Positions 18,186 through 53,111 of a DNA stretch of 64,000 nt are shown here, piece after piece. Position 1 is the stretch's first letter, and each line of letters starts with the position of its first letter. The notes beneath the pieces are model-generated. The model made no database searches. It was given only the letters and a program-made list of their open reading frames with translations, and was not told where the DNA came from. The position numbers and the translations under genes were made by a program. The DNA is from an uncultured Anaerolineales bacterium (lineage in GTDB: Bacteria > Chloroflexota > Anaerolineae > Anaerolineales > UBA11858), in NCBI GenBank assembly GCA_964457375.1, contig CAYWFK010000003.1, positions 4,652 through 68,651 on the forward strand. The letters run 5' to 3'.

Positions 18186-19283
18186 TTATGGCTTGACGGA
18201 AACCAGCTTCCCGAAACTGTTGATTTGTAAATGCCATTTGGAGCCAATTTCGAAAGTGCTGAATTGGTTGTAGTCATCCGTTTCGTATGTGTAATCGCCT
18301 TTCGGTGTATCGAAGAGAACCGCATACGTTTCGTATCGTTCACCCAGCCTTTGATCTTCGTTCAGGGATGGATCAGGCCAGTAGGCGTTGAGATCATTTC
18401 CGGAGACGGAAACCGTGTCGACAGTTTGCCATTCCATAATCGAATAGCTGCAATAATCATCGTAGACATGGTATTCGCAGTCCTGAACCACTTCGCCGAC
18501 ACCGTTTCCCGAATCGACTGTGTAGGGTGTTCCGCAGACCTCGGTGGAATTGGGTACGGGTTCGCTAACGACGCTGCGTTCTTTCTGAGAGCAGGCTTCG
18601 ATTTCCGCTTCGGAAGGAATTTCATCCCGCCAATCCTCGTGCTTTGCGGGGGCATAGGCTTCGATGGCGACAGCCCGCTTCCAGGAAAGGCCGGTAACCA
18701 CACCGGAAACGGCGTTCGTTTTCATCGACATGAACATGAAAATTCCCCCGATGACACAACAAACCAGCAAGATGAGAATGAGTACAGCAGGGACGGCTTT
18801 CGAAACCGGCTTTTTGGCAGTGCCTCCGGCTGCCGGTGCGGATGACTTTTCTTCTTCGTATCCGGGTTGTTCTTTACGCAAGGATGCTCCGCACTGTGCA
18901 CAGGTCAGGGCATTGCCGGGGTTTTCTGCGCCGCAATTCGGGCACATGATTTTTTCGAGTTTCTCTTTGCGATAAGCGCCGACGACACGCCCCTTTTTGC
19001 GCTTTTGACCACCAGTCAGATCACCCCCGCATTGGGAGCATGTTTTTGCACTGGATGGGTTACGTGCACCACAGTATGGGCAATGGATATCCGGACCGGC
19101 TTCGGCTTTCTTTGCCAGCTTTTCGTCATTGGAAAGTTCCTGGCCGGGCTTCTGGATGAATTGCACGTCATCAGGCTGAGGCGCACCGCAATTCAGACAG
19201 ACTTTCTCCTCGCCGGGATTGAGGGTTTCACAATTCGGGCAGGTCCAGAACAGTTCGACATAACCTAATTTTTTCTTTGCCAT
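18186..19283 (-). CDS. triple zinc-ribbon membrane protein with a Cys-rich extracytoplasmic domain (hypothetical)
   Basis: 365 aa. Three CxxC-x10-12-CxxC ribbons (CPNCETLNPGEEKVCLNCG, CPYCGARNPSSAKTCSQCG, CPNCGAENPGNALTCAQCG), one TM helix (AVPAVLILILLVCCVIGGIFMFM) and a C-terminal domain of about 170 aa. GGAGGA RBS. Confidence 0.7.
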   Translation of the reverse strand: MAKKKLGYVELFWTCPNCETLNPGEEKVCLNCGAPQPDDVQFIQKPGQELSNDEKLAKKAEAGPDIHCPYCGARNPSSAKTCSQCGGDLTGGQKRKKGRVVGAYRKEKLEKIMCPNCGAENPGNALTCAQCGASLRKEQPGYEEEKSSAPAAGGTAKKPVSKAVPAVLILILLVCCVIGGIFMFMSMKTNAVSGVVTGLSWKRAVAIEAYAPAKHEDWRDEIPSEAEIEACSQKERSVVSEPVPNSTEVCGTPYTVDSGNGVGEVVQDCEYHVYDDYCSYSIMEWQTVDTVSVSGNDLNAYWPDPSLNEDQRLGERYETYAVLFDTPKGDYTYETDDYNQFSTFEIGSKWHLQINSFGKLVSVKP

Positions 19284-26729: not shown

Positions 26730-29147
26730 GTGAAACTGATTATGCAAAAAATTAAGACGCACCGCCTGCTTTTGCCGGCGGTTGTGTTTCTCGGGTTGTT
26801 TTCGGTTGTGCTGACGTTTTCCCCGTCTCTTTTGGCGCGTAATGGCAGTTCCACCTTGCGCTGGGCGCATTGGATTGGTTTTGCGGTTTGGGTTGTTGGC
26901 GCTGGGTTGAGTGCGCGTGCACTTGACAAATCACTGCCGGGCAGTGACCGGTATTTGTTTGCTGTTACTGCCTTTCTTGCCGGATGGGGATTGCTGACCA
27001 TTTGGCGGCTGACACCCGTTTTCGGGGTGCGGCAGACGGTTTGGCTGGCAGTGGGGATGACCGTGCTGATTTACGGGGTGCGCTACCCGGGGCTTCTTGT
27101 TTTTCTGAAACGCTATAAGTATGTGTGGCTTACAGCCGGGTTGCTTTTGACTTTCGCTACTCTGATTTTGGGAACCAACCCGATGGGAAGCGGACCGAGG
27201 CTGTGGCTGGGTTGTTGCGGGGTTTATTTTCAACCTTCCGAACTTTTGAAACTGCTCCTGATTGTTTATCTTGCCGGGTATTTGAGCGATCATCAGGGTT
27301 TGATCGATAGAATCTCGCAGGATGTGAAGCGAACCCGCCGGATGGGTGAACGGCTGCGGTTGATTCTTCCCATCCTGATGCCAATTTCCCTGATGACGGG
27401 GATTGCTTTGCTGCTGCTCCTCTTTCAGCGGGACCTGGGGACAGCGCTGGTTTTCATCTTTATTTATACAGTGATGATTTATCTGGCGACTGGGTGGAAG
27501 TGGGTGCCGTTGGTGAGTTTTGGGGGGATGATGGCTGCCGGTGGCGTGGGGTATTTGTTCGTGGATGTCGTCCATGCCCGCATTCAGACCTGGCTCAATC
27601 CATGGCTTGACCCCAGCGGACAGTCTTACCAGATTGTGCAATCGTTGATTTCGATTGCCAACGGGGGCGTTTTCGGGCGCGGTCCGGGAATTGGCAGCCC
27701 GACGCTGGTCCCTATTGCTCATTCTGATTTTCTGTTCACTGCACTTGCCGAAGAAACCGGTTTGTTCGGGACGATTGGTTTGTTCATCCTGCTGGGTATT
27801 TTCCTCCAGCGGGGAATCCGCATCGCCCTGAATGCCCCCAATACGTTTCAGCGTTATCTGGCTGCCGGCTTGACGGTGCATATTGTTGCACAAAGCCTGT
27901 TGATCATTGGGGGAAATATGAGGCTGCTGCCGCTGACCGGTGTAACCCTGCCGTTTCTGTCTTATGGCGGGTCTTCCCTGCTGGTATCGTTTTTGTCGCT
28001 GTTGATTTTGTGCCTGATTGCCGGTGAATCTTCCGGGGCGGGGTTTCGTCATCCGGAAAAACAGCCTTATGTCATGGTGGCTTCGTTTTTGCTGATTTGT
28101 TTGAGCGCAACTGCGCTTGCGAACGGTTGGTGGGCGGTGGCACGAGGCCCGGCGCTCCTGAAGCGCACGGATAACCCCCGAAGGGCGATTTCCGACCGTT
28201 TTGTGCGCAGAGGCGCGCTTCTGGATCGGCATGACAAGCCGATCGTGGAAACGATTGGCGAACCGGGGGCGTACCGGCGCTTTTCGGATTATCCGGGCGG
28301 CGCTGTAATCGGATACAATCATCCGGTATACGGACAATCCGGATTGGAAGCGAGCCTGGATTCCTATTTGCGCGGGCTGGAAGGCGGGGATCCCTGGACG
28401 CTTTGGTGGCATCATCTGCTTTATGGGCAACCTCCCCCCGGGGTGGATGTGCGTTTGACTCTCGATGTCGGCATACAACAAGATATCGACAAAATCTTTG
28501 GCAGGCACAAAGGCGGGCTGGTGTTAATCAACGCGGAAAGCGGGGAGATTTACGCCATGGTTTCCCGCCCGGGGTATGATGCCAATCGCCTGGACGAAGA
28601 TTACGAAACATTGATTAGTAATCCCGATTCGCCTTTTGTAAACCGGATTACCCAGGGACGTTATGCTTATCAATCGCTGAAAGAACTTCTGACATTGCAA
28701 CAGGATAGTCATGGCAGGTTGCTGGGTGTTCCTGATTTCCGGATTCATAATATTCCGGTTGCCTCGCTGGTCGATGGCGTCAGCCCTCTGCAAGTGGTGC
28801 TTTCTGCGGCGATGTTGAGCAATGGCGGCGTGCTGCCCTCATTGCGGATTGCTTTGGCAATCAAAGAGCAGGAAGGCGAGTGGATTTCCCTGCCGGCGCT
28901 GAGTGTGCCGAGAGAAACATTGCTTGCGGAAAATGCGATTTTGATGAGCACGAAAATCGTGCGCACAAAGGAACACTGGTACCTTTTGGATCAGCCTGAA
29001 GATGGCAAGATTACCTGGTTTGCAGGCGGTACGCTGCCGGAGAATAAAAATATCCCGTTTGCTGTGGTTGTTGTGCTCGAAGAGGATGACCCCGATTTGG
29101 CAAAGGAAATTGGAGAGTTCGCTTTGAAAGCTGTTGTTTATCCGTAA
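26730..29147 (+). CDS. FtsW/RodA/SpoVE (SEDS) family protein fused to a class-B PBP-like domain (dimerisation plus degenerate transpeptidase)
   Basis: Residues 1-435 are SEDS (FQPSELLKL, PIAHSDFLF, SYGGSS). An extra TM helix lies at about 446-470. PBP2-like motifs follow: RGALLDRHDKPIV, GQSGLEASLD, LINAESGEIYAMVSRPGYDAN, SPLQVVLSAAMLSNGG and WFAGG. Confidence 0.85.
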   Translation: MKLIMQKIKTHRLLLPAVVFLGLFSVVLTFSPSLLARNGSSTLRWAHWIGFAVWVVGAGLSARALDKSLPGSDRYLFAVTAFLAGWGLLTIWRLTPVFGVRQTVWLAVGMTVLIYGVRYPGLLVFLKRYKYVWLTAGLLLTFATLILGTNPMGSGPRLWLGCCGVYFQPSELLKLLLIVYLAGYLSDHQGLIDRISQDVKRTRRMGERLRLILPILMPISLMTGIALLLLLFQRDLGTALVFIFIYTVMIYLATGWKWVPLVSFGGMMAAGGVGYLFVDVVHARIQTWLNPWLDPSGQSYQIVQSLISIANGGVFGRGPGIGSPTLVPIAHSDFLFTALAEETGLFGTIGLFILLGIFLQRGIRIALNAPNTFQRYLAAGLTVHIVAQSLLIIGGNMRLLPLTGVTLPFLSYGGSSLLVSFLSLLILCLIAGESSGAGFRHPEKQPYVMVASFLLICLSATALANGWWAVARGPALLKRTDNPRRAISDRFVRRGALLDRHDKPIVETIGEPGAYRRFSDYPGGAVIGYNHPVYGQSGLEASLDSYLRGLEGGDPWTLWWHHLLYGQPPPGVDVRLTLDVGIQQDIDKIFGRHKGGLVLINAESGEIYAMVSRPGYDANRLDEDYETLISNPDSPFVNRITQGRYAYQSLKELLTLQQDSHGRLLGVPDFRIHNIPVASLVDGVSPLQVVLSAAMLSNGGVLPSLRIALAIKEQEGEWISLPALSVPRETLLAENAILMSTKIVRTKEHWYLLDQPEDGKITWFAGGTLPENKNIPFAVVVVLEEDDPDLAKEIGEFALKAVVYP

Positions 29148-30598: not shown

Positions 30599-31102
30599 CT
30601 ACGGACGGGTATAATAAACGTTTTTTTCTGATACCGACGTGTTTCGCAGCCCGCTCTTTTCAAGCAAGGTTTGCAAAATCACATCGCCGTCTTTGAAGCC
30701 TAATTGCCCTTTCAAGTCACCGTTGAGTATGACTTTGCCCAGAGTGCGGAACTCGAAATGGGCTGATTTCCCAAGTACTTGCACGCGGTTGCCCCAATGT
30801 GATTCCAGTACGTGAATTTTGTCGATTTCCTGCCACTTGAACGCAGCGTGGCGGATACCGTTGGAGAAACTGACGCCGTTGGCATCGATGACAATCGAGG
30901 TGTGCCTGTCCATCCAGTTGCCAAGGCTGATGCTGCCCGCAGCGAGGAAAAGGAGCAGCACGAAGATGGCAGCCGGGATGTGCAGGATGCCAAAGTGAAG
31001 CCGCAGCAAGAGCAGGCTGACAAACGAAATGGCAAAGAGTGCCCATGTCAGTTTTTCGCTTTTGCGTGAAAGCAGCTCGGGAAAATAGGTTTTGCTTTCC
31101 AT
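30599..31102 (-). CDS. membrane protein with a PH-like (bPH) C-terminal domain (hypothetical)
   Basis: 167 aa. Two TM helices, then IVIDANGVSFSNGIRHAAFKWQEIDKIHVLE... The beta-rich module resembles bacterial PH domains. This assignment is tentative. Confidence 0.5.
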   Translation of the reverse strand: MESKTYFPELLSRKSEKLTWALFAISFVSLLLLRLHFGILHIPAAIFVLLLFLAAGSISLGNWMDRHTSIVIDANGVSFSNGIRHAAFKWQEIDKIHVLESHWGNRVQVLGKSAHFEFRTLGKVILNGDLKGQLGFKDGDVILQTLLEKSGLRNTSVSEKNVYYTRP

Positions 31103-33271: not shown

Positions 33272-36200
33272 ATGTTTACGAACGGTATGAATCGGAAACT
33301 TAAAGGTTTTCGGCTGCGCGCAGCAGTATCGAAGCTGATGTATGCGGTGATGATACTCGGCTTGGTGCTGTCTGTTGTGCGGCCAACAACTGTCTTGGGC
33401 GGAACAGCATCCGGGCTGGACGACCTGGCTTACACCGAAGGTGACGGCTGGGTTTACCTTGATTCCAGCGTAACTGTTTCTTCCACGACCAATGACTGGT
33501 CGGATGGATATATCGATATCGAGATAACCGGGAATGGTTCTCCGGCAGACCAGCTGCGGATTCAAAGCTCCGGAAACCTGACTGTCGTTGGCGATGCAGT
33601 CTCCTGGAATGGAACGAGAATCGGTACGATCGATCCTGTGCGGAACGGTGTCAATGGGCAGCCGCTGCGGATCAACTTCAGCGCTTCGTTGAAAAACGCC
33701 GGTTTCGAGACAGGTGATTTTACAGATTGGGTTGTCAATACGAATTTCCCCGGTTTGGCTGGTGATACTCCCAACGGCATATATCAGGATGCAAGTGTTG
33801 TGACCAGCCCGGTGTCGTCGGGGAATTATGCAGCGAAATTGCATCTTACAGGAAATGTTTCTGTGGCGTATGGTACTGCACATGGGCCAACGCTCACAAG
33901 CAGTTCGTTTTATGCGAAAGCCGGAAACAACCTCTCGCTAACCTGGCGGGCTGAAGATAGCGGAGACGATTATGACGTGTATGGTTACATCAACAATGTT
34001 GCCACAGGGACGCAACAGCAATTGTTCTATGACCGCGGTGATAATACGGGCGGTTGGGTAAACCTGAATTCGACAATCGATTCGACCGTTTGCCCCAGCG
34101 GCGTTTGTGAACTGCAATTTCAATTTATTGCCGGCACCTATGATGCATCCGGTGGGAAGTATGTTGGAACGACCATGTATATCGACGGTATTCAAATCGT
34201 GACAACTGCCGCCCAGGATGACGCAGTGGATTACATTGTCGAACATATCGAATATGAGAATACTTCCGATAATCCGAAATCAACGAAACCTTATAAGCTG
34301 ACAATGAAAGATTCCGGAAGTACGGGCACTGCAACTGCAACGATCAATATTACCGGTGTCAATGATGCGCCTACGGATATTCAATTATCGAATGACAATA
34401 TTCAGGAGAATCAACCTGTCAATACAGTGATAGGTGCTTTGACGACCTCTGATCCGGATGACACGACATTTACTTATACGCTGGTCGCCGGTACAGGGGA
34501 CGATGACAATGCATCTTTCAATATTTCCGGAAACAATTTGCGTTCCAGTGAAATATTCGATTATGAAACCAAGAATACTTATACGGTGAGAATCCGTTCG
34601 ACGGATTCCCATGCGGCTTCTACTGAAAAATCCTTCACGATTCATGTTACCAACCAGAATGAAGCGGCAACAGCGTTTACCAATGGGGCACCCCCGGACG
34701 GGGATTTGGGTGTTGCCTATAACTTCACCTTTGCGGCAAACGGAGACCCGACGCCGACTTATTCAGTTTCCAGCGGGTCTTTGCCCCCGGGACTGACTTT
34801 GAATGCGACAACCGGTGTCGTTTCCGGTACCCCGACTGCGGCCGGAACATACAACTTCGAAATCACGGCAACCAACGTGGCCGGTTCTTATTCGAAGGAT
34901 TATTCGATTAAGATCAACAAGGGAAATGCCACTACGACGATCGTTACCGATTTGCCTGACCCGAGCAAGTACGGGCAGAATTATGCAGTTGCTGTTTCTG
35001 TGACATCGGCTGTTTCTATCGTGCCGACAGGTACAGTGACTGTAACCGACGGCACGCATACTTGTCAGGTAACGCTATCCGGTGGCGTTGGTTCCTGTAA
35101 TTTGCCTTCGACCTCGATCGGTGCGGTAACGATTACTGCGACTTATCCGGGAAATGCAAATTACAACGGCTCCAGCGACACGGAAGCGCATACCATCGAA
35201 AAGGCAAACACGACTACGACGATCACCAGTGATGCGCCTGACCCCAGTAAATACGGGCAAAACTATTCGGTTTCTGTCAGTGTATCTTCGGATACTACCG
35301 CAGTGCCGACCGGTACGGTGAATGTTTCGGACGGAACGAATTCCTGCACGGCGACTCTCTCCGGCGGAAGCGGCTCTTGTGATTTGCCTTCGACTTCCGT
35401 AGGTGCGGCGACGATTACAGCGACTTATGCTGCGAATACGAATTTCAATGCATCCAGCGGTACAGAGGGGCACACCGTCGAGAAAGCGAACACGACGGTA
35501 ACAATCACAGGTGATGCGCCTGATGCAAGTGTCTATGGCCAAAACTATACCGTTGCCGTGAGTGTAACTGCGGATACTACCGCAGTGCCGACGGGCACGG
35601 TGAATGTTTCGGACGGAACGAATTCCTGCACGGCGACTCTCTCCAGCGGAAGCGGCTCTTGTGTTTTGCCTTCGACTTCAGCCGGTGGAATTACAGTTAC
35701 GGCTACTTATCCGGCGAATGCGAATTTCAATGCATCCAGCGGCACAGAAGGACACACCGTCGAGAAAGCGAATACTACGACTGCGGTCAATCGCTCGGTG
35801 GTTTCGCCTGTTTACGGACAGCCGGTTTCCTTTACTGCTACGGTGAGCACTGTTTCTCCGGGTTCTTATACACCGGAGGGTATGGTGCAGTTTTATATCG
35901 ACGGGTCAGCATTCGGAAGCCCGGTTGCTTTATCCGGCGGCACGGCAACGAGCCAGTCGACAACTGCGCTGGATGTCGGAAGCCATACGTATTATGCAGA
36001 ATATCTGGGTGACAGTAATAACAATCCCAGCGATTCGATGCCCGCCACGTCTTTCGGTGTCAGCAAGAATTCGACAACCACAAGCGTGGTTTCGTCAAAG
36101 ACCCCCAGCGTGTACGGGGAAGCAATCCACTTGACAGCAACAGTCACCGAGGTTGCTCCATCGGTTGTAACCCCGGTCGGTCAGGTACAGTTTTATGTCG

Positions 36201-39200
36201 ATGGAACGGCTGCGGGTTCACCGGTTGCACTGGACGCCTCAGGAAATGCGTCTTCACCGGATTTGCATACCTTGCTTGCCGGCGGCCATTTGAAGGTCGG
36301 CACGCATACTTTCTCCGCTTCGTATCTTGGAAACAGCAATACTCTGGCAAGCGCCAGCGGGGATGAAAACCAGGTTGTCAATCCAGCTGCCACAACGTTG
36401 ACAATTGCTTCTTCCGAGAATCCGACGATTTACGGTACGACCCTGGCGATGACGATTACAGTTGCCCAGGAAAATGCCAGCCTGATGACCCCTCAGGGAA
36501 CGGTGCAAATGTATATCGATGGTGTCAAGTTCGGTTCGGTGATGACGCTGGATGCGAACGGTAAGGCATACCGCACTGTACCGTATATGAATCTTTGGCC
36601 GGGACACCACGACATCACCGGCGTTTATACGCCGGCAACACCGGCACAATTCCAGGCGAGCAATAACAATGCACACCCGCTCGACCAGGTGGTCAACAAG
36701 GCTGATCCGGTAATCACGATTTCGGCTGATGTTACCAATCCGGTTGCCAGCGAGAAGATTCAGTATAGTGTCGTGATTAGCCCTTCGATGCCAACGCAAG
36801 GTACTCCCAGCGGAACGGTACAGTTCTATCTGGACGGTAGTCCTGTTGGCAGTCCGGTGACTCTCGATAGTCAGGGACGGGCGAATTGCCCTGAACTGGT
36901 CGCCCTGGATACCGGCACGCATAATATCACGGTGCGTTACAGCGGAGACGATTACTTCAATAGTGTGCCGACTTCTTCTGCATACGTCCATCATGTTTCC
37001 AAAGCCGATACAACCACGGCAATCCAGTCCATTACCCCAACCGAATCGGTTGTCGGGCAGGCAGTTACGGTAAACATACAGGTTGACCCTGTATCACCGG
37101 CAGCCGGAACACCGACCGGAACATTCACTGTAACGAATGGCACGGATAGCTGCACGGGAACTTTGCTGGCGTCAGGCGCAGGCTCTTGTGCGCTGCATCC
37201 GACCAGCCCCGGGATACCCAACCTGACGGCGCAATATGGCGGATCGGCGAATTTCAACGCTTCCGTTTCCTCCGCTTTCAATGGTCCCAAAGTCTCGAAA
37301 GCGAATACGGTTGTGACCATCACCGGTTACGATCCGACCAGCCCGATTGCCTATCAAGCGGTAACGATTACTTTTACTGTTGATCCCGTAGCACCGGGTG
37401 CAGGTACACCGACAGGGTTGGTTACGGTCAGTGATGATCAGGGGCACACCTGTTCGGCGACTGTTTCTGCCGGATCGTGCCAGCTTACTTTCGAGAGCAT
37501 CGGGCAGGTTACCTTGACCGCCACCTATGCAGGGGATGCGAATTTCAATCCATCGACAACCGGGGCGACAACAGGACCTGTTGTGCAAAAGGCACAAACG
37601 ACAAGTGTGGTTGCTTCGGCGAAATCACCGACTGTTTATGGTGAACCGGTGGCGTTTACTGCTACCGTAACAGTCGACAGCCCGGCTTCGGGAACTCCCA
37701 CCGGACAGGTGCAGTTTTCGATCGACGGGACGAATCTCGGTTCTCCTGTAACGCTAACTAACGGGAAGGCGGTTAGCAGTCAAACCCATACACTGGCTGT
37801 CGGTACGCACCATGTCAAAGCAACGTATCTTGGAAATGATGATCTGGATGGCTCCGAATCAGCGGCTATCGATCAGGTTGTCGAAAAAGCAGATACATTG
37901 CTGACGATAACCTCTGAAATAAATCCCTCGCCTTATGGTATGCCGGTTATGGTAACCACTACGGTAACCGGTGCGGCGCCCAGTCTGCTTTCTCCCAAAT
38001 CGGGGACGGTACAGTTTTATATCGATGGTGTTGCTTATGGCAGCCCCGTACCTTTGAAAGCGGATGGTACAGCAAACAAACTGTTGCCTTACACAGCTTT
38101 GTGGGTGGGAACACATCAGATTACAGCCGTTTACAGCGGCAATGCTTCGTTCAACGGCTGCAATAATACGGCCGCACCGTTGTTGCAGGTTGTCGAAGGC
38201 GGAAACCTGACGATTAGCATCGAGGAAACGGTTGGTAATCCGGTCTTCGGGCAAAGTTTGGCGATTACTGCGACGGTTACCGGCAACGGGTCGAACAATC
38301 CGAAGCCGTCGGGAACCGTGAAGTTCTACCTTGACGGTGTCTTGCTGGGTACTCAGAAGACCCTGAATGGCAGCGGAAAAGCGCTGAGTGATGCTTTCTC
38401 GCATCTGAGCGTCGGGCTGCATGATGTCAAAGTCGAATACAGCGGGGATGATTATTACAAACCTTCGGTGCAGATATTCTCCGAGGCAATCGAAATCAGC
38501 AAGGCGGATGCAGCAATCCAATTGCTTGGATCCGTTCCGAACAGTGTTGTTGTCGGGGAACCGTTTACGGTTACTTATACGGTCACTGCTTCGTTACCCG
38601 GTGCGGGTACTCCGACCGGTCTGGTGACGGTCTCGAATGGCAGTGATACCTGTTCTGCACTTGTCAGCGTGGGTAAATGCCAGATAACCCCGTCTGCTGC
38701 TGGTGTTCAGCATCTGAATGCAACTTACAGCGGAGACGGCAACTTCAACGTTGCAACGACAACCTCCGCCATGACCGGAACAACAGTGAACAAAGCCGAT
38801 GTTAGTCTGGCAATTACCAATGTTCCGGCAGGACCAGTTTACGTCCGGCAGCCGTATTCCGTCACTGTTCATGTTGCTGCTGTCGCTCCCGGAACGCACA
38901 TCCCCGTGGGCAAGAACATTACGATCAGTAACGGAGTGGATTCCTGCATCGCCGTTGTTGCTGCGGATGGTACGGCGACCTGCCAGATTTTGCCAACCCA
39001 GGCAACCAGCGGCAGCCCGCTAAAATTGACTGCAACCTTCGCCGGTGACAGCAATTTCAACAGCGCAACTTCCGCACAGGTTAGCGGTCCGACAGTGAAC
39101 AAGGGTGATACGACAACGACTGTCGAAACCAGCAAAACCATGGTGAAAACCGGAGAATCGGTGCAGTTCACCGCTCATGTAAACACGCAGTCGCCTCCAG

Positions 39201-39886
39201 GCGGAACAGCGGACGGCAGTGTGCAGTTCACCGTCGATGGGGTAAACTTCGGCCCGCCCGTGGCGTTGAGCAGTGGTGTTGCAACCCTGAGCACCGCATC
39301 CCTGGCGACAGGCAAACATCAAATCAAAGCCAACTATCAGGGAAGCAGCAGCTATAACGCCAGCAGTTCTTCGGCGGTTGCCGTAACCGTGGTCGATGGA
39401 GACAAATTCGTCGAAGTGTCACCGGCAATCACAACCACGTTGGTCTATACTCATGTCCAGAAGGGCGCTGTGCAAACGACAACGATTACCATTCCTGCCG
39501 GTGCAGTCAGCCAGACGGTCTCACTGGTTTACAAACAAGTGAATCCTTCTTCGCTGCTGCCGCCAACCGGCTTGACCTTCGTTTCGAACTTCAATCTCAA
39601 GGTTTATGTCGACGGCGTTTATGCACCGAACTATGATTTCATCAAGCCGATTGTCGTCAGAATGACATACGACCCGAAGAATTGGCAGTCAGGTACCCTC
39701 GATGTTTCCGGTTGGAACGGGACGACCTGGAACAAGACATGGCTGGGTTCGTTCGCTAACAATGAGACAGAAGGCTGGATGGACTTTACGATTGCAGGTA
39801 TTCATGATCTTGAGTTCGCACTAAGCGGCAAGACCAGAAAGCCTGCTGACGCTTACAAAGTGTTCCTGCCGATCATCTTCCCGTAA
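33272..39886 (+). CDS. giant secreted/surface protein: N-terminal signal-anchor, jelly-roll (CBM-like) region, cadherin-like domain, He_PIG-like Ig domain, 15 tandem Ig-like (Big_3-type) repeats, and an unassigned 165-aa C-terminal domain
   Basis: 2204 aa with a GGGAGG RBS. Hydrophobic N-terminus (YAVMILGLVLSVV). NAGFETGDFTDW motif. VNDAP...FDYETKNTYTVRIRSTD is cadherin-like. GSLPPGLTLNATTGVVSGTPTAAGTYNF is He_PIG-like. Fifteen units of about 94-105 aa each start K[AG][ND]TT-like and end ATY.G[DN].N[FY]N.S. Confidence 0.9.
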   Translation: MFTNGMNRKLKGFRLRAAVSKLMYAVMILGLVLSVVRPTTVLGGTASGLDDLAYTEGDGWVYLDSSVTVSSTTNDWSDGYIDIEITGNGSPADQLRIQSSGNLTVVGDAVSWNGTRIGTIDPVRNGVNGQPLRINFSASLKNAGFETGDFTDWVVNTNFPGLAGDTPNGIYQDASVVTSPVSSGNYAAKLHLTGNVSVAYGTAHGPTLTSSSFYAKAGNNLSLTWRAEDSGDDYDVYGYINNVATGTQQQLFYDRGDNTGGWVNLNSTIDSTVCPSGVCELQFQFIAGTYDASGGKYVGTTMYIDGIQIVTTAAQDDAVDYIVEHIEYENTSDNPKSTKPYKLTMKDSGSTGTATATINITGVNDAPTDIQLSNDNIQENQPVNTVIGALTTSDPDDTTFTYTLVAGTGDDDNASFNISGNNLRSSEIFDYETKNTYTVRIRSTDSHAASTEKSFTIHVTNQNEAATAFTNGAPPDGDLGVAYNFTFAANGDPTPTYSVSSGSLPPGLTLNATTGVVSGTPTAAGTYNFEITATNVAGSYSKDYSIKINKGNATTTIVTDLPDPSKYGQNYAVAVSVTSAVSIVPTGTVTVTDGTHTCQVTLSGGVGSCNLPSTSIGAVTITATYPGNANYNGSSDTEAHTIEKANTTTTITSDAPDPSKYGQNYSVSVSVSSDTTAVPTGTVNVSDGTNSCTATLSGGSGSCDLPSTSVGAATITATYAANTNFNASSGTEGHTVEKANTTVTITGDAPDASVYGQNYTVAVSVTADTTAVPTGTVNVSDGTNSCTATLSSGSGSCVLPSTSAGGITVTATYPANANFNASSGTEGHTVEKANTTTAVNRSVVSPVYGQPVSFTATVSTVSPGSYTPEGMVQFYIDGSAFGSPVALSGGTATSQSTTALDVGSHTYYAEYLGDSNNNPSDSMPATSFGVSKNSTTTSVVSSKTPSVYGEAIHLTATVTEVAPSVVTPVGQVQFYVDGTAAGSPVALDASGNASSPDLHTLLAGGHLKVGTHTFSASYLGNSNTLASASGDENQVVNPAATTLTIASSENPTIYGTTLAMTITVAQENASLMTPQGTVQMYIDGVKFGSVMTLDANGKAYRTVPYMNLWPGHHDITGVYTPATPAQFQASNNNAHPLDQVVNKADPVITISADVTNPVASEKIQYSVVISPSMPTQGTPSGTVQFYLDGSPVGSPVTLDSQGRANCPELVALDTGTHNITVRYSGDDYFNSVPTSSAYVHHVSKADTTTAIQSITPTESVVGQAVTVNIQVDPVSPAAGTPTGTFTVTNGTDSCTGTLLASGAGSCALHPTSPGIPNLTAQYGGSANFNASVSSAFNGPKVSKANTVVTITGYDPTSPIAYQAVTITFTVDPVAPGAGTPTGLVTVSDDQGHTCSATVSAGSCQLTFESIGQVTLTATYAGDANFNPSTTGATTGPVVQKAQTTSVVASAKSPTVYGEPVAFTATVTVDSPASGTPTGQVQFSIDGTNLGSPVTLTNGKAVSSQTHTLAVGTHHVKATYLGNDDLDGSESAAIDQVVEKADTLLTITSEINPSPYGMPVMVTTTVTGAAPSLLSPKSGTVQFYIDGVAYGSPVPLKADGTANKLLPYTALWVGTHQITAVYSGNASFNGCNNTAAPLLQVVEGGNLTISIEETVGNPVFGQSLAITATVTGNGSNNPKPSGTVKFYLDGVLLGTQKTLNGSGKALSDAFSHLSVGLHDVKVEYSGDDYYKPSVQIFSEAIEISKADAAIQLLGSVPNSVVVGEPFTVTYTVTASLPGAGTPTGLVTVSNGSDTCSALVSVGKCQITPSAAGVQHLNATYSGDGNFNVATTTSAMTGTTVNKADVSLAITNVPAGPVYVRQPYSVTVHVAAVAPGTHIPVGKNITISNGVDSCIAVVAADGTATCQILPTQATSGSPLKLTATFAGDSNFNSATSAQVSGPTVNKGDTTTTVETSKTMVKTGESVQFTAHVNTQSPPGGTADGSVQFTVDGVNFGPPVALSSGVATLSTASLATGKHQIKANYQGSSSYNASSSSAVAVTVVDGDKFVEVSPAITTTLVYTHVQKGAVQTTTITIPAGAVSQTVSLVYKQVNPSSLLPPTGLTFVSNFNLKVYVDGVYAPNYDFIKPIVVRMTYDPKNWQSGTLDVSGWNGTTWNKTWLGSFANNETEGWMDFTIAGIHDLEFALSGKTRKPADAYKVFLPIIFP
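34919..35764 (+). repeat. three tandem 282-bp coding repeats (Ig-like units 1-3); units 2 and 3 are near-identical at DNA level
   Basis: Units are 34919-35200, 35201-35482 and 35483-35764. For example, 35291-35400 and 35573-35682 differ at only a few positions (GATACTACCGCAGTGCCGAC...GAATTCCTGCACGGCGACTCTCTCC). Confidence 0.9.
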
Positions 39887-51306: not shown

Positions 51307-51708
51307 TTACTCTTCGAGTGCGCCGTAACCGGGGCCTTCGGTGAAGAATTTGGCGTTTTCTTCGATATCGGGGGTGAGGTCGACAACTTCGCCAGCTTCC
51401 AGCTGTTTTGTGCAGTCGAGAACAACCTGTTCCCCATTGTGGTCTGTATTTTCATAATGACCGGTCAGGTCACGGCGGCAAATATATTCGCCACCTTTGG
51501 CCTCATAGGCTTCGGGTACTTCGTCTTCTGGAAAAATCGCTTCATAAGGGCATTCCGGAACGCAAGCTCCGCAGTCGATGCAGGTATCCGGGTCGATATA
51601 CATCCAGGGCCATTCTTCGATTGGTTTTCCTGGAATGATGCATTCGACGGGGCAGACTTCCATACAGCCGCCATCGCGCAAACATAAACTAGTAATCACA
51701 TGAGCCAT
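51307..51708 (-). CDS. dicluster ferredoxin (3Fe-4S/4Fe-4S pattern) with a long acidic C-terminal extension
   Basis: 133 aa. CLRDGGCMEVCP (C-x5-C-x3-CP) and CIDCGACVPECP (C-x2-C-x2-C-x3-CP). Confidence 0.85.
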   Translation of the reverse strand: MAHVITSLCLRDGGCMEVCPVECIIPGKPIEEWPWMYIDPDTCIDCGACVPECPYEAIFPEDEVPEAYEAKGGEYICRRDLTGHYENTDHNGEQVVLDCTKQLEAGEVVDLTPDIEENAKFFTEGPGYGALEE

Positions 51709-52157: not shown

Positions 52158-53111
52158 ATGACAGAATCGAAACCACAATCCGGGATTTCCCCTTATCTGG
52201 CAATTGGCTTTGCTGTTCTGGCTATTTCGACGGCATCGATTTTCATTCGCTTTGCACAGCGTGAAGCGCCTTCTCTGGTGATTGCTGCCTACCGGTTGTC
52301 GCTGGCTGTTTTGATACTTCTTCCGCTGGTGGTGAGAAAGCACCTCGATGAATTGAAAAGCCTGGGAAAGAAAGCGTTTTTGCTGGCTTTGCTCTCCGGT
52401 TTCTTTTTGGCGGTGCATTTTGCGGTTTGGATTACGTCTCTGGAATATACGACAGTGGCAAGTTCGGTTGTGCTGGTGACGACAACGCCGCTTTGGGTGG
52501 CGATGATGGCACCTCTGGCAATCGGCGAGCGCATCACCAAACCGATTCTTGTCGGGATGGTGATTACTCTTCTCGGCGGGTTGATCGTCGGGTTGGGGGA
52601 TACCTGCACGATGTATTTTTGGGGGCTGCATTGCCCGCCATTTTCCGCTTTTGTTTCAGGGCGGGCGTTCATCGGTGATGCCCTGGCTTTGACAGGTGCA
52701 CTGGCAGCAGCGGCTTATTTGATGATCGGGCGAAGTTTGCGGGGGGCGCTTTCTCTTGTGCCGTATGTGTTTTTGGTTTACGGGATGGCTGCGGTTATTC
52801 TTGTCCTCGCGGCACTGGCTTCCGGTGCTGCGATGTTCGGTTATTCCGGGCAAACGTATCTTTGGTTTTTGCTTCTCGCCGTTTTTCCTCAGCTGCTCGG
52901 ACATTCGATTTATAATTGGGCGTTGAAGTATCTTTCTGCGTCTTATGTGTCGATTACTTTGCTGGGTGAACCGAGCGGCACTATTTTACTGGCTTATATT
53001 TTCTTGCGGGAAATCCCTTCTGGCGTGAAATTGTTCGGTGCTATACTTATTTTAATGGGAATATTGCTTGCTGCGAAAAGGGATGTGGCACTTGTCGAGC
53101 CGGCAGGGTAA
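52158..53111 (+). CDS. EamA/DMT-family transporter
   Basis: About 10 TM helices in two EamA halves. ATG 52158 has GGAG 9 nt upstream. The ORF-track start at GTG 52134 is possible. Confidence 0.75.
   Translation: MTESKPQSGISPYLAIGFAVLAISTASIFIRFAQREAPSLVIAAYRLSLAVLILLPLVVRKHLDELKSLGKKAFLLALLSGFFLAVHFAVWITSLEYTTVASSVVLVTTTPLWVAMMAPLAIGERITKPILVGMVITLLGGLIVGLGDTCTMYFWGLHCPPFSAFVSGRAFIGDALALTGALAAAAYLMIGRSLRGALSLVPYVFLVYGMAAVILVLAALASGAAMFGYSGQTYLWFLLLAVFPQLLGHSIYNWALKYLSASYVSITLLGEPSGTILLAYIFLREIPSGVKLFGAILILMGILLAAKRDVALVEPAG

Follow-up and report, generated by a model that had tools for sequence, protein, structure and literature searches.

A SEDS polymerase fused to a predicted non-catalytic class B penicillin-binding protein in an Anaerolineales bacterium and its relatives

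A 64,000 nt stretch of DNA from an uncultured Anaerolineales bacterium (contig CAYWFK010000003.1, positions 4,652 to 68,651; hereafter the window) contains, at 26730..29147 on the forward strand, one open reading frame (ORF) that encodes a polymerase of the SEDS family and a domain resembling the penicillin-binding proteins of class B (bPBPs) in a single polypeptide. In the ORF list the protein is 805 amino acids (aa) long from a GTG start. An alternative ATG at 26742, four codons inside the ORF, yields an 801 aa protein and is the start chosen in the JGI gene call; no clear Shine-Dalgarno sequence precedes either GTG 26730 or ATG 26742, leaving the start codon ambiguous. The original prediction, made from the sequence of the window, described this 805 aa ORF as carrying both SEDS and PBP-like parts, and every motif that it quoted is present: FQPSE (residues 167-171), HSDF (331-334) and GGSS (413-416) in the SEDS half, and RGALLDR (494-500), GQSGLE (535-540), YAYQSLKE (645-652), SNGG (697-700), VRTKEH (744-749) and WFAGG (763-767) in the PBP half. 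The gene and its parts are as follows.

26730..29147, + strand: the whole gene, a SEDS polymerase joined to a putative pseudo-class-B PBP (ORF list, identical JGI protein and AlphaFold2 model)
26730..27017, + strand: N-terminal membrane helices, residues 1-96 (AlphaFold2 helices 10-36, 47-68 and 74-94; the Pfam SEDS match begins at residue 97)
27018..28028, + strand: SEDS (FtsW/RodA/SpoVE) glycosyltransferase core, residues 97-433 (PF01098, E = 4.3e-67)
27720..27731, + strand: HSDF motif in extracellular loop 4; by motif similarity, its Asp333 corresponds to the putative catalytic Asp in FtsW/RodA
28062..28163, + strand: extra transmembrane helix, residues 445-478, equivalent to the bPBP N-terminal anchor (AlphaFold2 helix, hydrophobic PYVMVASFLLICLSATALANGWWAV)
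28164..28505, + strand: PbpA-type pedestal/dimerisation module, residues 479-592, with RTDNPRR, RGALLDR and GQSGLE (PF21922 and phmmer)
28506..28685, + strand: N-part of the transpeptidase-like domain, residues 593-652, with the first two strands, the first helix and the start of the SxxK-bearing helix (PF00905 and AlphaFold2)
28662..28685, + strand: degenerate motif 1, YAYQSLKE in place of Y-P-x-G-S-x-x-K (alignment to PDB 4mnr)
28686..28778, + strand: deletion scar, residues 653-683, where a short linker, variable in sequence and modelled with low confidence, takes the place of the ~120 aa SxN helical subdomain (spacing, identity and model confidence)
28779..29144, + strand: C-part of the transpeptidase-like domain, residues 684-805, with the SPLQ helix, three C-terminal sheet strands and a terminal helix; KTG absent (AlphaFold2 and 4mnr)
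28959..28991, + strand: former KTG strand, with VRTKEHWYLLD where the intact fusions have ..GKTGTA.. (MAFFT alignment)

The AlphaFold2 model, built from a 120-sequence alignment, has a mean predicted local distance difference test (pLDDT) score of 88.7 and a predicted template-modelling (pTM) score of 0.86. Beyond the SEDS core, it contains the helix at 445-478 and the pedestal, and then a transpeptidase core made of two strands and one helix (595-630). A short helix (651-657) is followed by a linker modelled with lower confidence, after which come the SPLQ helix (686-697), three strands within 749-783 and the terminal helix.

The fusion is real and covalent. An identical 801 aa protein (P0121) is encoded on a separate JGI metagenome contig of 11.5 kb, where its gene has the same neighbours as in the window: a fumarate hydratase subunit, TyrS, a 167 aa ORF and alanine racemase. 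Further, a search of a large protein collection yielded 119 additional full-length homologues (742-893 aa, 48-61% identity) with the same architecture, from many assemblies labelled Chloroflexota, Anaerolineae or Anaerolineales. These two observations exclude an artefact, and they rule out the joining of two genes by a frameshift, which the original prediction had raised against itself. The wider form of that explanation, in which a SEDS gene was frameshifted or mis-assembled into a damaged bPBP gene or the C-terminal part is the decaying remnant of a pseudogene, has nothing in its favour except the unusual architecture. It is also contradicted by the full-length gene at 80 genome loci (described below), by C-terminal ratios of nonsynonymous to synonymous substitution (omega) of 0.09-0.26, which are far under 1, and by the confident AlphaFold2 model of the C-terminal domain. 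Its probability is negligible.

The N-terminal half contains a full SEDS domain, as had been proposed from the FQPSE, HSDF and GGSS motifs; the Pfam match, a RodA fold and conserved loop residues all bear this out. In particular, FTSW_RODA_SPOVE (PF01098) aligns to residues 97-433 over profile positions 36-353 of 356 (E = 4.3e-67), and all 59 family members on which Pfam was run match the same profile. Searches with phmmer found P. aeruginosa FtsW (7.9e-29) and T. thermophilus RodA (2.1e-26), and E-values against the solved FtsW and RodA structures range from 1e-28 to 1e-23. The Foldseek TM-scores, normalised by the target, are 0.83 to RodA 6pl5_A, 0.82 to 6bas and 0.75 to 8p1u_A/8bh1_A. Among 120 homologues, S332, D333 and F334 are invariant, as are the conserved ECL2/ECL5 residues QPSE (168-171) and, within SYGGSS (411-416), S411 and G413-S416, with Y412 nearly so; 153 of the 337 columns of the SEDS core are at least 90% conserved. 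SDF is also kept in 79 of the 80 genome loci. In E. coli FtsW, D297 of the H295-T296-D297 motif is the putative catalytic residue, and D297, Y379 and G380 are required for function (PMC8765783); the HSD and YG of the window protein are paired with the HTD and YG of E. coli FtsW by motif similarity, not by alignment.

NCBIfam places the N-terminal part nearest to FtsW/RodA, at a level where sequence does not separate the FtsW subtype from RodA, and the equivalog scores fall under their cut-offs (235.7 versus 337.5 for FtsW, 194.5 versus 336.7 for RodA). Such scores could be taken to mean that the whole protein is non-enzymatic, that its SEDS part is also a pseudoenzyme and that the protein acts purely as a scaffold or as a regulator binding lipid II. 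However, sub-threshold equivalog scores are expected in a divergent phylum, neither the putative catalytic Asp333 nor the other loop residues on which FtsW function depends vary among the homologues, and the core is the most constrained region of the protein (omega 0.06). We consider this explanation very improbable; the SEDS part is apparently a competent polymerase.

The SEDS core is followed by the two elements through which a bPBP would ordinarily contact its polymerase partner in the solved complexes discussed below: an anchor and a pedestal. The extra transmembrane helix, placed at 446-470 in the original prediction, is a long helix at 445-478 in the AlphaFold2 model, which supports its assignment as the bPBP anchor; among the 120 homologues it is poorly conserved (median identity 32%), yet always present. 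The pedestal/dimerisation motifs were also correctly recognised, and the module is of PbpA type according to PBP_dimer_2 and phmmer. The PBP_dimer_2 (PF21922) match at residues 524-574 is weak in the window protein itself (20.2 bits versus a 27-bit cut-off), and 56 of the 59 relatives match at E<=0.01. The phmmer alignments to the PbpA-type structures 4mnr, 4jbf and 3un7 span residues 481-657, and NCBIfam places residues 534-649 nearest to PBP2/MrdA-type proteins. The length of the pedestal is the same as in related fusions with intact catalytic motifs: 179 aa from the end of the transmembrane helix to motif 1, versus a median of 179.

The transpeptidase-like domain that follows is reduced. 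Pfam Transpeptidase (PF00905) is matched only at residues 595-646, corresponding to profile positions 1-41 of 299 (24.9 bits), and the matches to solved bPBPs all end near residue 650-657. The AlphaFold2 model has strands at 595-601 and 606-613 and a helix at 618-630 in the N-part, and a helix at 686-697, strands at 749-754, 762-768 and 777-783, and a helix at 788-803 in the C-part. The top PBP structural matches in Foldseek are the PbpA-type bPBPs 4mnr, 3upn and 4jbf, with target-normalised TM-scores of 0.57-0.60. Comparison of motif spacings between the window protein and 15 intact SEDS-bPBP fusions locates the missing segments: motif 1 to the SPLQ helix spans 36 aa (about 35 aa had been estimated) versus 120 in the intact fusions, and the SPLQ helix to the KTG strand spans 65 versus 78 aa, while the other segments are nearly equal (13 versus 16 aa and 42 versus 42 aa). 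The deletion thus comprises ~84 aa with the SxN helical subdomain and ~13 more, ~97 aa in total, and the remaining transpeptidase-like part is 213 aa versus ~310 aa, about two thirds of the normal length rather than the half that had been proposed. At the scar itself, median identity among the 120 homologues drops to 13% and pLDDT to 64-80.

The catalytic motifs were examined by alignment to the transpeptidase and PBP_dimer profiles and to 4mnr, and no intact triad was found; each motif is absent or out of register, as the original prediction held. In the alignment to 4mnr, YAPGSTFK is paired with YAYQSLKE, placing Ser649 in the nucleophile column and a Lys at +2 instead of +3. The claim that SxxK is missing therefore stands for the motif and its Lys, and does not extend to the Ser, which is present at the nucleophile position; the segment RYAYQSLKE, given as 28665-28682, spans 28659-28685. 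WFAGG at 763 pairs with the WFVG of 4mnr, which lies after the KTG strand, and alignment with the intact fusions confirms VRTKEH where KTGT is expected before WFAGG. The columns of the former KTG strand hold no conserved Lys, Thr or Gly among the 120 homologues, and W750 within it is invariant. SxxK, SxN, KTG and a complete transpeptidase fold, the four marks of an active class B PBP, are all missing from the window protein. With its Lys displaced, its SxN subdomain deleted and its KTG gone, the transpeptidase-like domain is predicted to be unable to form an acyl-enzyme.

Conceivably, the C-terminal domain could still be a transpeptidase or acyl-transferase with a non-canonical site, built from Ser649 and Lys651 or from residues elsewhere; Ser649 does align with the 4mnr nucleophile, a Lys does lie at +2, and the domain is under purifying selection. 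However, column 649 reads D42/N22/G18/E12/T9/S8 among the 120 closest homologues, leaving Ser in only 8 of them, and column 651 is mainly A/G/L. Moreover, neither SxxK nor KTG occurs at any of the 80 genome loci, the deletion (36 versus 120 aa) has removed the SxN subdomain, which forms one wall of the active site, and the Pfam profile is covered at positions 1-41 of 299 only. Because the pair is not conserved in the closest homologues, and because the canonical motifs are absent from all 80 loci, Ser649 and Lys651 of the window protein appear to be a lineage-specific coincidence and not a conserved site. A surviving non-canonical enzyme is highly unlikely.

Constraint differs among the parts of the protein. 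Median identity to the window protein among the 120 homologues is 61% in the pedestal (471-592) and 62% in the SEDS core, and in both the commonest residue of a column has a mean frequency of 0.74; in the transpeptidase remnant, median identity is 48% for the N-part and 35% for the C-part. The remnant nevertheless retains invariant residues throughout (G605, P614, P635, R639, Y645, G700, W718, W750, W763, G767 and E784). Median omega, calculated by the Nei-Gojobori method for 16 gene pairs at 76-93% protein identity and approximate since synonymous divergence (dS) is often >1, is 0.06 for the SEDS core, 0.07 for the pedestal, 0.09 for the N-part of the remnant and 0.14 for its C-part, where the least saturated pairs give 0.18-0.20. 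One pair (L023/L042) is codon mis-registered and produces impossible values, and it is still counted in these medians. Overall, the pedestal is constrained as tightly as the polymerase, and the transpeptidase remnant is relaxed relative to the rest and clearly maintained by purifying selection. A conserved pedestal and polymerase beside a dead but selected remnant is what one would expect of a PBP part retained for something other than catalysis.

The taxonomic spread of the fusion was surveyed, as the original prediction had suggested, by scanning species-representative genomes with two search patterns that both lie within the SEDS part. The scan yielded 597 stretches encoding a relative, of which the best 80 were kept. 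Each of these best 80 spans essentially the whole query at 44-53% identity, and nearly all come from Chloroflexota/Anaerolineales metagenome-assembled genomes (MAGs). At all 80 loci the gene is full-length and of the short form, without SxxK and without K[ST]G; the fusion is therefore found throughout Anaerolineales-type Chloroflexota, with every one of the best 80 of 597 stretches motif-less and short. A 5.8 kb contig labelled as a Bacteroidota MAG (L057, JBLMZU010000235.1) also carries an Anaerolineales-type short dead fusion, full-length and at 47% identity; this contig is probably mis-binned.

More distant fusions came from searching 1.84 billion cluster representatives exhaustively with HMMER, and 94 of the representatives found, each of at least 740 aa, were aligned with the window protein. 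They fall into three grades. Fifteen of the 94 are intact, keeping PGS[TAS][FY]K, SxN and GKTGTA, and are 33-39% identical to the window protein. Another 68 are dead and full-length: their transpeptidase domain has the normal length and lacks the SxxK Lys and KTG, with sequences such as PGSALG, GGCP and PTGA in place of the motifs. The remaining 11, together with the window protein, are dead and short. SxxK is thus missing from 79 of the 94 representative fusions. Only two intact fusions have source names, one from Armatimonadota and one from Gemmatimonadales, and the taxonomy of the intact and dead full-length grades is poorly covered. In an approximate neighbour-joining tree of the SEDS and pedestal columns only, 14 of the 15 intact fusions form one separate clade, and the short forms occur in two or more widely separated positions. 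The tree has long branches, and the position of the window protein among the dead full-length forms is not robust; it is accordingly used only coarsely, for the placement of short forms in separate clades. Because dead full-length forms predominate and short forms lie in separate places of the tree, the series indicates that catalysis was lost before truncation, and that truncation happened more than once.

The gene neighbourhood of the fusion differs between the window and its relatives. Three same-strand genes precede the fusion at 56-60 of the 80 loci: an FhaA-like gene (FhaA_N and FHA domains, 280 aa), an FhaB-like gene (transmembrane segment and FHA domain, 156 aa) and, immediately upstream of the fusion, an MTA-phosphorylase-like PNP_UDP_1 gene. 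At 44 of the 80 loci the upstream set also contains a gene for a 194 aa double-zinc-ribbon protein. None of these fhaA/fhaB-like, MTA-phosphorylase-like or double-zinc-ribbon genes of the upstream set is present in the window, whose flanking genes are metabolic or housekeeping, with alanine racemase 2 kb downstream of the fusion on the opposite strand; the fusion is also the only PBP or SEDS gene in the 64 kb. Two genes that usually lie downstream of the fusion are found elsewhere in the window. Examples of the upstream set and the two displaced genes are listed here.

L008, 7738-8577 and 9053-9916, and L009, 7236-7703, all + strand: examples of upstream-set genes in relatives, with equivalents at 56-60 of the 80 loci
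51319-51708 of the window, - strand: ferredoxin-like gene, 72% identical to the gene directly downstream of the fusion in 32 of the 80 relatives
52212-53084 of the window, + strand: membrane-protein gene, 53% identical to the gene directly downstream of the fusion in 16 of the 80 relatives

Since the ferredoxin-like and membrane-protein genes sit ~22 kb from the fusion gene in the window, the fusion locus has been rearranged in the window's lineage, from which the linkage to the FHA genes is gone. In Actinobacteria, the corresponding cluster has the order fhaA-fhaB-pstP-rodA-pbpA-pknA-pknB (PMC6554272). By analogy, the FHA linkage in the relatives suggests that the fusion is controlled through Ser/Thr phospho-signalling and is orthologous to the RodA-PbpA pair, and it may be the counterpart of that pair because the FHA gene linkage is joined by a PbpA-type pedestal. 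No homologue of the phosphatase PP2C (PstP) or of the kinase PknB is among the 14 most frequent neighbour families of the 80 loci.

Three other genes in the window deserve mention. A 365 aa zinc-ribbon-rich protein (Zn_Ribbon_1, DZR and RanBP-type domains) is encoded at 18186-19283 on the reverse strand, and a link to the double-zinc-ribbon protein of the relatives' FHA cluster is possible. A 2204 aa ORF at 33272-39886 on the forward strand contains 15 Big_3_5 Ig-like repeats and a cadherin-like domain, and is presumably a surface or adhesion protein. Between TyrS and Alr, at 30599-31102 on the reverse strand, lies the gene for the 167 aa predicted membrane protein, which has no Pfam match; it is kept beside TyrS at 7 of the 80 relatives' loci.

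A synthase that polymerises without cross-linking would depend on a transpeptidase supplied by another gene, and a candidate exists in the group. At one locus (L026, 15736-18012, reverse strand), a 758 aa bPBP with intact SVFK, SCN and KTGTAE motifs is encoded 3.4 kb from the fusion gene. This stand-alone bPBP (~750-765 aa; MecA_N, PBP_dimer and Transpeptidase domains) adjoins the gene of the RsgA GTPase and is found again at L082 (18-2315). Its homologues form more than 100 clusters, those with source names being almost all from Chloroflexota/Anaerolineales, and SxxK, SCN and KTG are kept in all 120 homologues listed. An intact stand-alone transpeptidase is therefore common in the Anaerolineales group and could cross-link in trans. 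A second contig, suspected of carrying both the fusion and an intact bPBP, was rejected as a coincidence.

Natural fusions of SEDS and bPBP proteins are known. A published survey catalogues 117 InterPro proteins as putative "bifunctional bPBPs" or 'bifunctional class B peptidoglycan synthases', including examples of 947 aa from R. jostii and of 931 aa from Senegalimassilia faecalis, the latter with a PbpA-type pedestal (PMC12516126); its text makes no mention of motif loss or of a Chloroflexota clade. The window protein resembles these proteins in its domain order (SEDS, transmembrane helix, pedestal and transpeptidase in one polypeptide), in its PbpA-type pedestal (PF21922) and in its closest solved folds (4mnr, 4jbf and 3upn), and the intact fusions at 33-39% identity belong to the same homologous series. 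The closest structures are deposited under the name "peptidoglycan glycosyltransferase" from Coriobacteriia, or as its transpeptidase domain, and judging by these names, 4mnr and 4jbf/4n1x probably represent soluble portions of intact Coriobacteriia fusions; crystals of the 4jbf family bind beta-lactams, according to their entry titles. Unlike the bifunctional fusions, which keep SxxK, SxN and KTG, the window protein has lost all three along with ~97 aa of the transpeptidase domain. Because it lacks these motifs and the complete transpeptidase fold of an active bPBP, its sequence does not fit the "bifunctional" label. The literature searched, subscription-only papers aside, contains no account of a Chloroflexota clade of motif-dead or truncated fusions.

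The remaining comparisons are with systems in which the two proteins are separate. The RodA-PBP2 (6pl5, 8tj3) and FtsW-FtsI (8bh1, 8p1u) complexes share with the window protein the SEDS fold (TM-score 0.75-0.83), the putative catalytic Asp motif, and the bPBP anchor and pedestal; in contrast, the partners are covalently joined here, and the transpeptidase domain is reduced and predicted to be non-catalytic. In the actinobacterial rodA-pbpA module, the pedestal is likewise of PbpA type and fhaA and fhaB lie in the same cluster, much as FhaA_N+FHA and transmembrane+FHA genes precede the fusion on the same strand in 56-60 of the 80 relatives, but the two genes are separate there, PbpA is active (acyl-enzyme structures 3upn/3upo/3upp), and the window is without FHA genes. 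The closest functional precedents are the B. subtilis PBP2b active-site mutant, which works with PBP3, and C. difficile SpoVD S311A, also with PBP3; the protein is needed in both cases and its catalysis is not. PBP2b and SpoVD remain required without transpeptidase catalysis, presumably because they activate their SEDS partner, and another PBP contributes (PMC12713402); that other PBP supplies the cross-linking (PMC12713402, PMC12516126). Those are laboratory point mutants in domains that are otherwise intact, whereas the loss described here is natural, is fixed over a large clade and includes the deletion of a subdomain.

Taken together, we think it probable that the gene encodes a working SEDS polymerase whose obligatory bPBP partner was joined on at the C-terminal end and later became a pseudoenzyme, with the pedestal activating the polymerase in cis, cross-linking supplied in trans, and the remnant serving as a cap or docking surface. 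The covalent SEDS-pseudoPBP of the original prediction is upheld in that the fusion is real, the motifs are lost across the clade and the pedestal is conserved; the activator or scaffold role of the PBP part, by analogy with known pairs, is what we infer. In the proposed arrangement, the SEDS core would end in the cytoplasm and the eleventh transmembrane helix, formerly the bPBP anchor, would return the chain to the outside, where the PbpA-type pedestal would sit above the polymerase, followed by the reduced transpeptidase-like domain. The transmembrane helix and pedestal would bind and switch on the polymerase in cis at a fixed 1:1 stoichiometry, as their counterparts do in RodA-PBP2 and FtsW-FtsI. 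Polymerisation of lipid II by FtsW depends on the cognate bPBP, and RodA is stimulated by substitutions in the pedestal of PBP2 (10.1101/358663). The new glycan strands would be cross-linked by another enzyme, for which the stand-alone MecA_N/PBP_dimer/transpeptidase bPBP is the best candidate and class A PBPs or L,D-transpeptidases are alternatives. The remnant would most likely be kept as a structural cap or docking surface.

Several observations weigh against this interpretation. The FHA genes on which the analogy with the RodA-PbpA pair draws are absent from the window, the omega values come from pairs in which dS is often saturated, and the window protein does carry a Ser at the nucleophile position with a Lys two residues on. 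The loss of transpeptidase activity is deduced from sequence. Further, a trans-acting transpeptidase in the window's own organism is assumed, and tblastn finds a second PBP within 10 kb of the fusion at only 1 of the 80 loci (L026). The uncertainty lies mostly in the proposed roles, not in the catalytic loss.

A further explanation, which is compatible with the proposed pseudoenzyme fusion, is that the remnant has been re-purposed, either as a binding module that recruits the stand-alone bPBP or a periplasmic partner, or as a sensor of peptidoglycan or stem peptides that gates the polymerase; it would then do more than cap the protein passively. The C-part omega of ~0.14 and the invariant W718, W750 and W763, one of which lies on the former KTG strand, would fit such a function, as would the recurrence of truncation with the sheet core always kept. 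Moreover, a second bPBP in C. difficile interacts, directly or indirectly, with transpeptidase-dead SpoVD (PMC12713402), and the organisms that carry the fusion belong to a group in which an intact bPBP is common. Against this, no partner has been identified, no periplasmic partner gene is among the conserved neighbours at the 80 loci, and, of all the folded parts of the protein, the remnant has the lowest conservation (35% median identity). Re-purposing is rather unlikely. As a tentative proposal, held with little more confidence, the non-catalytic transpeptidase core may be a dedicated docking or sensing module across Anaerolineales-type Chloroflexota, one that recruits a separate intact bPBP or monitors the condition of the wall.

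SEDS-bPBP pairs are core growth and division machines and a major antibiotic target, and the idea that the essential role of a bPBP is that of an activator, with replaceable cross-linking, has so far drawn most of its support from in vitro experiments and engineered point mutants. The clade described here would be a natural separation of the activating and cross-linking roles, in which the transpeptidase appears to have been inactivated and then trimmed, more than once. Its members may offer structural and biochemical studies a minimal, self-contained construct of SEDS polymerase plus activator, and domain-based surveys that count such proteins as "bifunctional" would overestimate the number of transpeptidases. 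The model predicts that this synthase is not itself a beta-lactam target, and it raises the testable question of which enzyme cross-links the wall in these widespread filamentous bacteria. If the remnant does prove to be a docking or sensing module, the fusion would represent a synthase built of three parts, a design without earlier description, and would demonstrate from nature that the conserved function of a bPBP paired with a SEDS protein is to activate and not to cross-link.

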